Positions 3,544 through 61,140 of a stretch of 64,000 nucleotides of DNA are shown here, one piece after another; the first letter of the stretch is position 1; each line of letters starts with the position of its first letter. This DNA is from Alphaproteobacteria bacterium. Its GTDB lineage: Bacteria > Pseudomonadota > Alphaproteobacteria > Bin95. Location: positions 160,001 through 224,000 of the forward strand of contig CBDBGH010000003.1 in the NCBI GenBank assembly GCA_965205265.1. The letters run 5' to 3'. The translations under genes and the position numbers were made by a program. The notes under the pieces are model-generated. The model was not told where the DNA came from, did not search any database, and saw only the letters and a list, made by a program, of their open reading frames with translations.

Positions 3544-5153
<1,610 letters not shown>

Positions 5154-5275
5154 CGCATTGTTCCTGATAAGTGCTGGTAGCGGCGATGCGGCGCGGGCGC
5201 CGGACCGCTTCGGGGAAGCGTCATGGAATGTCATGTTCCGGCGCGCCGGGCCGCCTCCGCGTGGCTCGTTTCCAC

Positions 5276-5404
5276 GTCGCCCCGGACTCGATCCGGGGCC
5301 CATCCCTGACCGTTTGCGCCCGCCGCGGCCGTTCGAGAAAGGATTGGACCGCTCGCGCCTGCCGAGAGCGCCCGGGATGGGCCCCGGATCAAGTCCGGGG
5401 CGAC
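5276..5404. repeat. REP-like paired palindrome
   Basis: gtcgccccggactcgatccggggcccatc ... gatgggccccggatcaagtccggggcgac, inverted pair. Confidence 0.8.
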
Positions 5405-5509
5405 GGGATGGGTGCGGACCGCGCGCGCAAAACCCGGCAAATTCGATGTCTTCACAACCTCTTTCGAGGGGGCGACGAATGCGGGCGCGAGCGCCGGCCC
5501 ACTCCAGCG

Positions 5510-5815
5510 TCGTGTCATGGGATGTCATGAAATGTAATGGTCCGGGGCGAAATCGGCGCTTCCGGGCGGGTGGAGAGGGCGGTGGTCGGGTCAGGTAGGG
5601 GCATGGCGGCTCCTCGGTTCGGCTCGTGTTCATTCGGCACACCGCCCGGCTGTGGAGCGACCCTTTACCGCGCGCATTTGCGTGCGGGCGCGGGCGCGTG
5701 TCGGCGCCGGCGCGGTTCGCGCGCCTGATTGCCCGCGCGAGGCAGGCTGAGGACGCACTTCGCCTGTCGGCTGAACCGGAGTCGGTCCGCATGCGCGTCG
5801 GCGCGGGAAGATTGT
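5510..5815 (-). repeat. Dispersed structured element, copy B (core, RBS, 29-aa ORF 5515-5604, ATGACA boxes; no own promoter)
   Basis: Core homologous to 5995-6150, 47270-47435 and 60235-60400; GAGGAG RBS; ORF MPLPDPTTALSTRPEAPISPRTITFHDIP. Confidence 0.8.
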
Positions 5816-5819
5816 GGCC

Positions 5820-6215
5820 TGTCATGGAATGTCATATTTACTCACACTTTGTCATGGTAGTGACGGCGGAAGGCTTCCTGGCGGGAGGAGAGGGCGAGGG
5901 TCGGGTCGATGATGGGCATGGGCGCGGCTCCTTCGTTCCGGCCCGCGTCCGGCGCGGACGCCGGCGCGGGTTTGCAGACAGGCCGCCCCGGCATCGGAGC
6001 GACCCTTTATCGCGCGCATTTGCGTGCGGGCGCGGGCGGGCGTTAGCGCCGGCGCGGTTTGCGCGCCTGATTGCGCGTGCGCGAGGCAGGCGCAGGGCGC
6101 ACCTCGCCTGTCGGCTGAATCGGGGTCGTTCCGCACCGGGCCGGCGCGGGCGGGATGCGGTCCATGGACTCCGCTTCCCTCGGACCCATCATAGCACAAA
6201 CCGATAAATGTCAAG
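5820..6215 (-). repeat. Dispersed structured element, copy A (promoter, core, RBS, 25-aa ORF 5842-5919, ATGACA boxes); candidate ncRNA/leader
   Basis: TTGACA..TGcTATGAT; closing helix 6123-6133 with 5995-6005; GAAGGAG RBS; ORF MPIIDPTLALSSRQEAFRRHYHDKV. Confidence 0.8.
6188..6214 (-). promoter_or_regulatory. Sigma70-like promoter with extended -10, reading into copy A
   Basis: Minus strand TTGACA-N15-TATGAT preceded by TGn; same layout at 60438-60464. Confidence 0.6.
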
Positions 6216-6317
6216 TATAATTTGTGGAAAATTCCTATACAATCGAACAAATCGGGCGATGGAACTGTGGAAAACAATGCGGACGTGCCCCCGGCACAAG
6301 GCTGTCGAGGAAGTGCC

Positions 6318-6424
6318 GGTGAAGCAGAGGCCCGGCCCGGCCCGTCTTCGAGATGCCGCGCGACGACTACACCAAAGCCCTCCTCGCCGCCGCCTTCGAT
6401 CTTGAGGCGCGGGAGACGGAGTAG
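6318..6424 (+). repeat. Right copy of the yejF 3'-end direct repeat (degenerate gene fragment)
   Basis: Reads ..VFEMPRDDYTKALLAAAFDLEARETE* versus yejF ..VFEAPRDDYTKALLAAAFDLEAREAE*. Confidence 0.9.
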
Positions 6425-6502
6425 GGCGGCGCATCTCGCCTTTTTCCTTCGTATAGTTATCGGATAGTGATAACCTTGGATGCCATGACAGCGTCCGCCC
6501 CC

Positions 6503-6883
6503 ATGACGACATTGAAGATCGGAATCGCCGGGTACGGCCGGATGAAAGCGCGGACGATGGCAATCGCGCGGGGAGAGCACAAACCCTCCGGGGATGAGCC
6601 GATGGTCTGGTTCGCATCCGTCGAGAGCTTTGCCAGGGTGCTCTCCGGGCACAATCGCGAACTGCTGGCGGTGATTGTGCGGGAGCAGCCGGGTTCGCTC
6701 ACGGAGTTGGCGGCGCTGGCCGGGCGAAGCAAGTCGAACCTGTCGCGCACCCTCAAGACAATGTCGCGCTACGGCCTGGTGGAATTGGCGGCGGGGCGGC
6801 GCGGCGCGCTCGTTCCCCGCGTTCCCTACGACCGGGTAAGCCTCGACCTGCCGCTGACGGCCTCGCCGCGCGAGGCTGCATGA
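6503..6883 (+). CDS. HTH DNA-binding protein (COG4190-like, putative antitoxin-type regulator)
   Basis: MTTLKIGIA..WFASVESFARVLS..NRELL..SLTELA..GRSKSNLSRTLKTM winged-HTH pattern. Confidence 0.7.
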   Translation: MTTLKIGIAGYGRMKARTMAIARGEHKPSGDEPMVWFASVESFARVLSGHNRELLAVIVREQPGSLTELAALAGRSKSNLSRTLKTMSRYGLVELAAGRRGALVPRVPYDRVSLDLPLTASPREAA

Positions 6884-25539: not shown

Positions 25540-25639
25540 CGGGGCCTGCCCGCTCGTTATGGGGTTTATATAGACAGGTTGACGACAGGTTTGCGAGGCT
25601 TCGCGCCTTCTCTCCAGCGTCATACGCGGACACCATATC

Positions 25640-25725
25640 GTCATACCCGGATTTGTTCCGGGTATCTCTCGCCATCGCTTCCGCCGGGCGGCCGCATGGA
25701 TACCCGGAACAAGTCCGGGTATGAC
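25640..25725. repeat. REP-like 86-bp paired palindrome
   Basis: gtcatacccggatttgttccgggtatc ... gatacccggaacaagtccgggtatgac; same unit at 27300 and 45051. Confidence 0.88.
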
Positions 25726-25812
25726 GGAGGGGGTGTTGAGGTATGACGGAAGAAATGTCGTTGGTCTCTCTGTCAACCTGTCTTTGTAATCCTCACGACG
25801 ATGAGGAGGGAC

Positions 25813-27265: not shown

Positions 27266-27299
27266 CGCGCCGGAACGGAGGTCCGGGCGTCTCCATCCC

Positions 27300-27385
27300 G
27301 TCATGTCCGGACTTGTTCCGGGCATCTCCCTCCGCCGCTCCGGCCGGGGGGCCGCATGGATACCCGGAACAAGTCCGGGTATGAC
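27300..27385. repeat. REP-like 86-bp paired palindrome
   Basis: Right arm identical to that of 25640-25725. Confidence 0.88.
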
Positions 27386-27559
27386 GGAGGTAGGGCGTTC
27401 GGGTGTGACGGAAGGGGCATCCGGGCATAACGCGGGAGCGGTCGGGCGCTCCGAACGAGGCGATATGAACTTCGGACGCACGACATCGGCCGCGCCCGCT
27501 TGCCGGGCGGCGGGGCGGGGGGCTACAAGGCGCGTTCCTGACGAACGAAGGGAAGGCCC

Positions 27560-44991: not shown

Positions 44992-45050
44992 TTGGGTCTC
45001 TCCTCGCGCCGGACGGCCTGGGTTGGGGCAGGCCCTAGCGTCCCGTTCCC

Positions 45051-45136
45051 GTCATACCCGGACTTGTTCCGGGTATCCATGCGGCCGCCCGTTGAAAGCG
45101 GTGGAGGGAGATGCCCGGAACAAGTCCGGGCATGAC
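45051..45136. repeat. REP-like 86-bp paired palindrome inside the ilv operon
   Basis: Same unit as 25640 and 27300, in opposite orientation. Confidence 0.88.
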
Positions 45137-45204
45137 GACATGGGAGCCGGGCATAACGACAAGAGGACTCGGCGCAAAGCCACGCAAACTTCTCGGCCGC
45201 GACA

Positions 45205-47121: not shown

Positions 47122-47204
47122 TCGGCAAGCGGGGGCGGCCTCCGCAGGCGGGAAAGGCATGAGATATTTGTTCGATAATATACGATATATTTCTTAGAAA
47201 GCAC

Positions 47205-47603
47205 TTGACATATAGTGCATGCGGAGCAATATGGAACCGGAGGAAGGAAGCAGCATCCGGAGCCGCTTCCCGCCCGCGCCGGCGCGCATGCGGAACGACC
47301 CCGATTCAGCCGACAGACGAGGTGTGTCTTGCGCCTGCCTCGCGTGCGCGCAATCAGGCGCGCGAACCGCGCCGCCGCGAAACGTGCACGGGCGGGCGCA
47401 GGCGCCGGCGCGCATTACGCGCGAATCAGGGTCCCGCCGCCAGCCGGCCGGCGACGGGGCGGACGGAACGAAACAGGAGCAAGGTGAACAACCGATGCCG
47501 AGGACAGAGAGTCGCTGGAACCGAAGGGAATACCCGCAGCCCATGCCCGAACAGGCCGCAGGATATGTGCTGAGTGCATACAGATCATGACATTCCATGA
47601 CAC
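47205..47603 (+). repeat. Dispersed structured element, copy C (promoter, core, 31-aa ORF 47495-47590, ATGACA boxes)
   Basis: TTGACA 47205-47210; helix 47297-47307 with 47423-47433; GCAATCAG loop; ATGACA at 47587 and 47597. Confidence 0.8.
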
Positions 47604-59951: not shown

Positions 59952-60464
59952 TGTCATGGAATGTCATGCGATGTCATGTTCTGCATGCGTGGGGCTCATA
60001 TGCTGTAGCCGGTTCTGGCATGAAGGCCATCTATCGATCTGGCAGGGCCTTGCCCCGTTGCACGGTCGCTGGCCCTCTCCCGGCCTCTCCTGCAAGCGGG
60101 GGAGGAGAGTTCGAGCGTCCTGCCGACCTCCTCGAAACCGTATCCGTAAGCATTCTGCATGTCGTTCCTTCATCCCGTTTCGTTCCACTCCGTTCCCTTC
60201 TCCCTTCGCCCCGCCGCCGGGCTGACCGGCGCGGCGGGACCCTGATTCGCGCGTATCCTGCGCGCGCGCCCGTGCCGGCGGGGGCGCGTGTTTCGCGGCG
60301 GCGCGGCTCGCGCGCCTGATTGCCCGCGCGCGAGGCAGGTGCCGGACGCACTTCGCCTGTCGGCTGAATCGGGGTCGTTCCGCACCGGGTCGGCGCGGGC
60401 GGGAAGCGGTCCGCGCGGACTCCACTCCCTCGGACCCATCATAGCACATTTTCTGAGAATACAA
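59952..60464 (-). repeat. Dispersed structured element, copy D (promoter, core, short ORFs, three ATGACA boxes)
   Basis: TTGTAT-N15-TATGAT then GGGTCCGAGGGA as in copy A; helix 60366-60376 with 60238-60248; perfect TCGCGCGC/GCGCGCGA stem. Confidence 0.8.
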
Positions 60465-60480
60465 GTCCTATAGAGAAATA

Positions 60481-61140
60481 TTACTTGAATACATATCGGT
60501 ATAAACGAGGTTTGTTCCCGGCGCGCCGGGCTCTACCGTGTCGCGGACGAACTGGCGCACGGTGTCTCCAGTGGCCCTGCGGACGGCTACGGCGCGTATC
60601 CGGTTGGTCTTGCGGTCCCTTGATGTCGAGGATGGGCGCCTTGCCGCCAAGGCCGCCTCTGGAGGTCTCCTTGTGGCGTTTGGGGGAGGCGTTCTTGCGC
60701 TTGCGGCCGAAGTAGCTCTCATCGGCTTCGGCTGGGCCGGCGAACATGGAACCGGCCTCGTTCGCCCATGCCTCTCGGATGCGATGGAGCATGAACCATG
60801 CGGTCTTCAGCGTTACACCGATGTCTTTGGCGAACTGGAGAAAGGCGATCCCCTTGGGTTGGGTTATCTCCATGTGTATGGCGAAGGCCCATTTCTGCAG
60901 GGGAACCTTTGGGTTTTCGAGGAAGGATCCGACTTTGACGGAGAATGCGCGCTTGCAGTTATGGGAGGCCGAATGTCTTGCTGGCTTTAGCGGTGTTGGT
61001 GGAGCCGCAGTGTGGGCAGTATCGGCTGTCGGGCCACATGACGGATTCGAACCATGCTGCCGCGGCCTCCTCGTCGGGGAAGAGTTGTTCTAAGTGGAAA
61101 GGGCTATCACCTCCCGCTGGGTCTTGCCGTTGTCCGTCAT
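60481..61140 (-). pseudogene. IS1595 family transposase, frameshifted and 3'-truncated
   Basis: FPDEEAA..WFES..WP..CPHCGS Zn ribbon; KTAWFMLHRIRE; EADESYFG; VYTD; pieces lie in different frames with early stops. Confidence 0.88.

Follow-up and report, generated by a model that had tools for sequence, protein, structure and literature searches.

Short cassettes dispersed over the genome of an alphaproteobacterium encode, in their intact copies, one of two unrelated small-terminase-like proteins. One of these, class II, traces back to the gene that immediately precedes the large terminase (TerL) gene in a resident podovirus-type particle cluster. In this genome and in most of its congeners, the cluster has lost this upstream gene, and only the cassettes still carry it. 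The presumed small-terminase gene of a domesticated cluster has been lost from its place and reappears, amplified and under selection, in genome-wide cassettes that end in arrays of short repeats. We hold these descriptive claims jointly, i.e., the cassette itself and the descent of class II from the cluster gene, with high confidence. The cassette family is real and multicopy, and it is not a known RNA, insertion sequence (IS), MITE, or satellite. Four copies, A to D, lie in the window (the whole 64,000-nucleotide stretch of DNA analysed) and are decayed members of this 73-copy family, not stand-alone RNAs. Literature searches, covering titles and abstract beginnings in an open-access collection, gave no description of this type of cassette or cluster.

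With slightly less confidence than doubt, we infer that the cassettes supply a small terminase in trans and also act as dispersed packaging-start or hijack sites. In such a scheme, the cassette-borne small terminase would act in trans on the resident TerL, and the promoter and heptad array would mark dispersed sites where terminase starts loading chromosomal DNA into particles. DNA starting at a cassette would be over-represented in particles, and recombination in the recipient, either between two cassettes or at short homologies, would create new sites, along with breakpoints of rearrangement and copies of mosaic structure. A to D and other short copies would be non-coding passengers that keep only the cis parts. 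The cassettes may, in short, decide where chromosomal DNA is loaded into particles.

An iterated nhmmer model of the conserved core gave 76 matches at E ≤ 0.001, all on contig C3; three lie in duplicated assembly segments, leaving 73 distinct copies genome-wide, and the preliminary description was right to call the element multicopy. The first 4.63 Mb of C3 contain 64 occurrences of an exact 14-base core pattern; the remaining 0.83 Mb and contigs C1 and C2 contain none. Similarly, CATGAC pairs at exactly 10-bp spacing number 136 on C3, whereas the second most frequent spacing, 20 bp, accounts for 43. Of the 136, 118 fall within 1.5 kb downstream of a core; C1 and C2 have none. This is a repeat family far beyond chance. 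No strand bias of the copies relative to the replichores is apparent by eye. Contig C3 itself repeats its first 21,126 bases at position 4,632,568, and the 0.83 Mb from there on (4632568-5463552) holds no cassettes except in a duplicated segment; C3 may represent a circular chromosome to which other DNA has been joined (contamination 7.28%).

A cassette spans 0.3-1.3 kb and is built of an AT-rich head, a promoter-like site, a leader of ~250 nt, one ORF, and a phased array of CATGACA heptads. Similarity between copies begins ~40-45 bp upstream of the -35 box. The AT-rich head with a TTG...TA...T site is present in 48 of 72 copies scanned, with a spacer of 15 bp in 35 heads, 16 bp in 12, and 17 bp in one, and mostly an extended -10 TG. 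GTTC stands at a fixed distance, at -33 to -37 in 24 of the 48 heads and at -15 in 14. Copies other than class I have a conserved pre-tail of ~45 nt before the heptads, whose offsets (0, 10, 20, 32, 42/43, 52/53, and 62/63) place them on one helix face, and the TGA of the array is the stop codon of many cassette ORFs. Beyond the last heptad there is no conservation between copies, and the 3' end is ragged.

The sharp 5' limit, with GTTC at a fixed distance, and the ragged 3' end speak for a mobile promoter cassette, selfish or tolerated by the host, whose movement would depend on an enzyme encoded elsewhere (e.g., an HUH or other transposase). In this view, the cassette would have taken up small-terminase folds for use outside packaging, as proteins that form rings and either bind DNA or regulate their own expression. 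We regard this explanation as unlikely. No consistent short target-site duplication was found in 62 copies, and there is no transposase or recombinase among the long RBS-bearing ORFs behind cores in this genome and in 80 loci of other MAGs; these ORFs are class I, class II, or non-conserved, Pfam having been run on one representative per class. Capture by a mobile promoter would also leave unexplained why both cargos are small-terminase-like and why one of them is the very gene missing from the cluster. No terminal inverted repeats were seen in the heads and tails inspected by eye. Flanking repeats among the 62 copies amount to the 110-bp end of an ABC gene at A/B only and REP-derived or short matches at three others. 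IS91-like elements have GTTC/GAAC ends; such ends were seen at one site and are not general. The LexA (SOS) box has the motif GTTC-N7-GTTC, and LexA control of the cassette promoters is not supported by the box counts in the 48 heads: none is exact, and six have one mismatch (shuffled mean 2.9, maximum 8).

Other mobile DNA is found at the cassettes. The first heptad of cassette tails is a recurrent insertion site of a ~250-bp MITE (L002:1949-2202; the tails of E27, E37, and further copies also contain it), which has long terminal inverted repeats around an inner REP-like palindrome. One IS, recognized by a shared end sequence, lies in or beside several cassettes (C3 near 695245, 2837636, and 3856206), twice directly at the array, and G012 has an IS110-like element after a heptad at two sites. 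Cassette tails thus look like insertion hot spots.

In the 64-kb window, all four copies lie where the preliminary description had placed them, carry the core it had given, and end in CATGACA pairs or triples. Its promoters of A, C, and D correspond to promoter-like sites, but these are not standard sigma70 promoters, and a standard sigma70 scan of window positions 5100-6500 returned none. Copy A (minus strand) opens with an AT-rich head (6215-6250) that begins TTGTTC (6245-6250) at the 5' limit of inter-copy similarity. It continues with a predicted promoter-like site (6188-6214; TTGACA-N15-TATGAT, extended -10 TG), the 5' hairpin P1 (approximately 6150-6182), and the GC-rich conserved leader core (5985-6149), with GCAATCAG at 6067-6074. 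An RBS and a 25-codon ORF follow (5842-5933; ORF 5842-5919), representing the start of a class I small-terminase-like gene of which the rest is deleted, and phased heptads at 5850, 5830, and 5820 (5820-5856) close the copy. Directly behind the last heptad of A lies B (5513-5815, minus strand), a headless tandem copy with no promoter-like site, a core at about 5650-5806 (GCAATCAG at 5725), a class I remnant of 29 codons (5515-5604), and heptads at 5523 and 5513. The small ORFs previously noted are, in A and B, the first codons of a 300-aa small-terminase-like gene.

Behind B, an extra heptad pair (5219-5235, minus strand) is a relic tail, and a REP-like inverted repeat (5275-5405) lies between the two. 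Further REP-like palindromic repeats occur in the window at 25618-25730, 27293-27390, and 45044-45158, the last of which is absent at the same place in most relatives. The end of an ABC-ATPase gene is present in a second copy (6329-6427, plus strand), 91% identical to 5058-5156, and the two bracket A and B; a longer form of this duplication is present in the relative G005. The A/B tandem junction is spanned (5720-6040) by a contig from another study's sequencing run. Contigs of three runs join 5839 to 5220 via 22 other letters, i.e., an allele without copy B or another locus. Nearby, an HVO_A0114-type HTH gene (6467-6883; Pfam E 2e-20) is without the upstream partner ORF found there in G008 and G016.

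Copy C (plus strand) has its head at 47168-47232, with TTGTTC at 47168 and a promoter-like site at 47205-47232 (16-bp spacer, weak -10), and a leader at 47248-47440, with the P1 hairpin at 47248-47268 and GCAATCAG in the core at 47350. Its ORF and tail (47495-47602) consist of a 31-codon short 'MPK/RT'-type ORF, a pre-tail from 47543, and heptads at 47586 and 47596. Copy D (minus strand) has an AT-rich head and promoter-like site at 60438-60500 (site 60438-60464), a leader at 60230-60427 with the P1 hairpin at 60404-60427 and GCAATCAG in the core at 60316, and an RBS-to-tail region at 59952-60170, which comprises a decayed middle without family match, a pre-tail (60012-60021), and heptads at 59972, 59962, and 59952. 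The 5' edge of its head adjoins an IS1595-like transposase remnant (60481-60873; weak Pfam match, E 0.14).

The leader has a near-invariant core, kept even in short copies, and the preliminary description took a multicopy structured RNA or riboswitch-like leader for the functional unit, with the ORFs and boxes as secondary. We consider this reading very improbable. In an alignment of 65 of the 66 leaders picked, P1, a hairpin right after the predicted start that the preliminary description did not include, is 86.6% paired, with two-sided changes in six of its ten pairs; no other leader helix shows such changes repeatedly, and P1 is probably real. The GCAATCAG stem is 95.5% paired in the same 65 leaders, which like P1 speaks for the structured-RNA reading, and 17 of the 29 invariant core columns lie in or beside its region, but it has no two-sided change, only changes that keep pairing via G-U; we grade it as possible. 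The second stem is 85.8% paired, with one two-sided cell. The closing helix that had been proposed is only 57.8% paired over the 65 copies, and none but its CCC/GGG pairs hold. Nor does the core fold the same way in each copy, as had been claimed: the minimum-free-energy folds differ, with z scores of +0.58 for D, -1.41 for A, and -2.66 for C, and a common fold of the core is not supported.

Along the same lines, 126 cores (67 from this genome and 59 from relatives), evaluated against a tree-based null instead of R-scape, contain no significantly covarying column pair, the best (E 1.4) being a non-pairing combination. The whole-structure score exceeds that of all 500 shuffles, in related sequences for which relatedness alone can yield such a score. 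Pairing of native arms is not superior to that of arms exchanged between copies (closing helix 47/100, loop stem 45/76), and sense and antisense strands fold about equally (mean z -2.05 vs. -1.71 in 21 copies). Because the 126 cores lack covariation and the closing helix fails, structured RNA as the point of the element is not supported; what stands of the earlier proposal is a leader in a spreading, mostly non-autonomous element. That it is not a known riboswitch or non-coding RNA is also confirmed, since Rfam matches only a tRNA in the whole window and gives copy D, at E ≤ 5, a best score of 18.1 bits against a cut-off of 50.

The reading in which cassettes provide a small terminase and packaging sites draws on their cargo. 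Seven copies encode intact class I ORFs (300-311 aa) and nine encode intact class II ORFs (195-206 aa); the other copies (about 57) are non-coding, deletions of class I or II, or carriers of short non-conserved ORFs. Class I matches Pfam Terminase_2 over residues 11-85 (E 4e-13), has a helix-turn-helix (HTH), and extends ~200 residues beyond the domain at its C-terminus; its predicted model has a pTM of 0.30, and no cognate TerL was found for it. Class II has a single match, phrog_31793, over residues 10-72 (E 2e-6), a family annotated as 'unknown function'. Its model contains two long helices and a doubled acidic beta-beta-alpha repeat, with no HTH, and gave no match at E ≤ 0.001 in Foldseek searches of PDB and BFVD; the ESM Atlas returned unnamed clusters with a best score of 0.85, a lead only. 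The two classes are unrelated to each other (hhalign 0.8%). Both are under purifying selection, as judged from pooled pN/pS within the genome of 0.15 for class I and 0.25 for class II, calculated from pairs that are not independent. Two class I copies have an identical ORF (first 280 codons) and leader, with heads that are 84% identical.

Such altered small terminases, with a native oligomerization part and new acidic C-terminal domains, could also serve as a packaging brake or anti-phage decoy, poisoning or titrating terminase rings, whether from incoming phages or from the resident particle, with the arrays as sinks. A decoy would suit the 16 intact copies, the purifying selection, and the sharing of one promoter type by two unrelated terminase lineages. 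Likewise, class II is without the C-terminal helix conserved in most cluster-borne relatives (G013's is shortened) and has gained the duplicated acidic repeat, and the class I relatives in viral contigs are distant (28-36% identity over the HTH). We nonetheless rate a decoy as even less probable than a mobile promoter cassette: most congeners with cassettes retain an intact TerL, which under this reading would be left without any small subunit, and defence does not explain the ~57 non-coding copies that keep promoter, leader, and array. Neither class II relatives nor the core pattern was detected in viral contigs, and neither class II nor a cluster-type relative matched any annotated phage record that would confirm the small-terminase label. 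Terminase_2 matches number 2-12 per genome in 11 of 16 congeners.

The resident particle cluster occupies a compact ~10.5 kb of C3 (3817757-3828026; loci L109 and L110) and encodes a repressor, a head-tail adaptor, a major head protein, two tail proteins, an internal virion protein, and TerL. The Pfam models Terminase_6N and TerL_ATPase found nothing in this genome, blanks that are misleading because tblastn with related TerLs located the gene at C3:3818323-3819789, with 44-55% identity. Two exact GTTC-N7-GTTC (LexA-type) boxes lie in the cluster, and no integrase or replication genes were found among its ORFs scanned. This gene content, with virion and packaging genes conserved in single copy, makes the cluster a candidate gene transfer agent (GTA) of a non-RcGTA type. 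Of 36 family genomes, 24 conserve it. TerL is present once in 14 of the 16 congeners (genus g1), occurs in all ten genomes of the sister genus g2, and is absent from the ten g3 genomes searched; 14 g1 sequences of TerL contain no stops. A TerL tree rooted with g2 places G013 and then G003 as the earliest branches among the congeners. The TerL and ilvB trees disagree (G005), and G011 and G015, distant congeners, share a near-identical allele at the A/B site; both are signs of frequent exchange between species.

Matches to phrog_31793 were obtained in 17 of 151 alphaproteobacterial genomes, a tally that includes the unpublished G064, and are single-copy in the 16 other than this genome. Of 15 loci read, G064's being left out, 12 have a ~490-aa TerL-like ORF directly after the phrog_31793 gene, one is unclear, and two have other neighbours; Pfam terminase domains were recognized in three of the six TerL-like ORFs tested. 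The gene adjoins TerL in all ten g2 genomes and in G013, a congener without cassettes, where it overlaps the TerL start by ATGA. By position, ATGA overlap, size, and helical fold, it is probably the cluster's small terminase. The 14 g1 loci read besides G013 include three disturbed ones (G007, G011, and G016). In all 11 undisturbed loci, this genome's among them, only 39-114 nt separate the preceding 59-codon ORF from TerL, and a profile search of all 14 loci revealed no remnant of the upstream gene. This profile was built with the G013 and class II sequences included and matches them by construction; in this genome, it finds the domain only in the nine cassette ORFs. The G013 protein and class II are identical at 45 of 81 positions (56%; E 2e-14), and class II and G013 form one clade (100/100) against 16 cluster-borne relatives, in a tree of 90 columns with long branches.

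Cassettes are present in 13 of the 16 congeners (14 by search, less a spurious match in G013) and were not found in G001, G003, G013, or eight genomes of g2 and g3; the weak matches in G013, G033, and G040 had no core on checking. Eight cassette sites were compared with relatives. Site C has a full copy in one of 16 genomes (G014), with a core of another subtype between flanks that are about 90% identical, and a decayed head only in G005 and G007; in the more distant species read, the probable miaA gene adjoins ilvB instead. Cores occupy site D in two of 14 relatives and site A/B in four of 14, with class II cargo in G004. Five sites of intact copies are filled in 1/5, 2/4, 1/5, 2/5, and 3/5 relatives, and three have syntenic empty sites, one with a 7-bp microhomology, one without obvious microhomology, and one a replacement. 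Copies are thus gained, lost, and converted; neither a responsible enzyme nor a rule for the junctions was found. The core pattern also occurs in at least 88 stretches of genome contigs beyond the genus sample; among the 80 listed, 79 are from alphaproteobacterial MAGs and one is from a MAG labelled Bryobacterales, which holds a complete cassette with core and tail tandemly repeated (L265:1-1525) and may reflect cross-phylum transfer or mis-binning. Patchy occupancy, empty sites, and this full tandem copy, if transferred, would all be at home with a mobile promoter cassette, and so would the persistence of many copies beside a broken cluster in G007, where an internal deletion runs through the 5' part of TerL, and in G016, where the TerL start is replaced by other sequence.

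For the reading in which the cassettes supply small terminase in trans and mark packaging sites, these genomes cut both ways. In its favour, G013, which branches first, keeps the cluster gene and has no cassettes, and G001 is without both TerL and cassettes and keeps one relic tail. However, G003 has an intact TerL with neither upstream gene nor cassettes, and loss from the cluster therefore does not require cassettes. G007 and G016 count against it for the reason given above, as do G002, which has cassettes but no TerL match (550 contigs, 95% complete), and G011, in which class I copies are accompanied by no more than a fragment of class II. In G008, a single class II copy occurs without class I. 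These kin genomes are not independent, and the pattern may amount to one loss and one capture.

At the molecular level, two small-terminase-like cargos, low pN/pS in both classes, and heptads phased on one helix face favour dispersed packaging sites, and the SPP1 pac site and the T7/T3 packaging starts provide precedents (PMC4737164, PMC3276506). On the other hand, no heptad pair exists in the cluster itself, in G013, or in G021, and the class II model, having no HTH, suggests no obvious heptad reader; class I does have an HTH, though in a protein of another terminase lineage. Class II also lacks the conserved helix at the end where phage small terminases carry their TerL-binding segment (PMC6854486), and the SF6 terminase domain showed no preference for pac repeats in vitro (PMC4737164). 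The small-terminase role of phrog_31793 is itself putative, suggested by position and shape.

A bolder version, which we consider rather doubtful, posits a GTA-like podovirus particle whose small terminase moved into ~70 dispersed promoter-leader-heptad cassettes that would function as programmed origins of packaging at a density of one per ~63 kb. As minimal satellites of the domesticated particle, they would skew the choice of chromosomal DNA for transfer and spread by this skew, and a second, unrelated DNA-binding small terminase would have been recruited to read the arrays. If packaging starts pile up at the 73 coordinates, this would be a new route of directed chromosomal gene transfer, and the cassette would be a selfish element of a new kind that lives off a particle of its host. 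Otherwise, the family remains a non-IS repeat by which small-terminase genes were captured on two occasions.

MITEs and Correia elements are short, multicopy, intergenic, promoter-bearing repeats that are patchy among relatives and act as recombination substrates. The cassettes share these traits but show no terminal inverted repeats or target duplication and contain protein genes under purifying selection. In SaPI/PICI satellites and lateral transduction, an element-borne small terminase could redirect the helper TerL and carry adjacent chromosome along. Like a satellite, the cassette has its own small terminase, by Pfam for class I and, for class II, by homology to a gene in the small-terminase position whose role is itself presumed; unlike one, it is a single-ORF unit of at most 1.3 kb, with no integrase, replication module, or att sites. 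At 0.3-1.3 kb and about 70 copies, it differs from SaPI/PICI also in that the helper would be a resident, vertically kept cluster.

The genome ends of T7 carry heptamer arrays. T7/T3 packaging starts at a paused transcribing polymerase (PMC3276506), and the cassettes combine a heptad array with a promoter and, on the 5' side, a pause-like hairpin; the TerL of relatives has a T7-type RNase H domain family. The promoter here is host-type, no phage polymerase was seen, and there are no terminal repeats, so the likeness to T7/T3 is an analogy only. In SPP1, the direct repeats of pac span promoters and the start of terS (PMC4737164). Class I shares Terminase_2 with the SPP1/SF6 small terminase, and the cassette, like pac, brings together promoter, terS gene, and direct repeats. 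Unlike in SPP1/SF6, the cassette repeats come after the gene instead of spanning its start, the unit is chromosomal and multicopy, the protein has 200 extra C-terminal residues, and no cognate TerL was found. A cassette array is a candidate pac site by its phasing and its neighbouring gene.

Among GTAs, PMC6854486 reports that RcGTA of Rhodobacter capsulatus has a small terminase, gp1, without a DNA-binding domain, that no binding sites are known for GTA small terminases, and that GTAs package host DNA without known start sites. A podovirus-like GTA of 10.5 kb has been described in Faecalibacterium (PMC12946183). Like RcGTA, the present cluster appears domesticated, and the short, helical, HTH-less small terminase directly upstream of TerL in RcGTA (PMC6854486) fits the ancestor of class II. 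Unlike RcGTA, the cluster is of podovirus type by its PHROG matches, and its presumed small-terminase gene has left it for dispersed, array-bearing cassettes.
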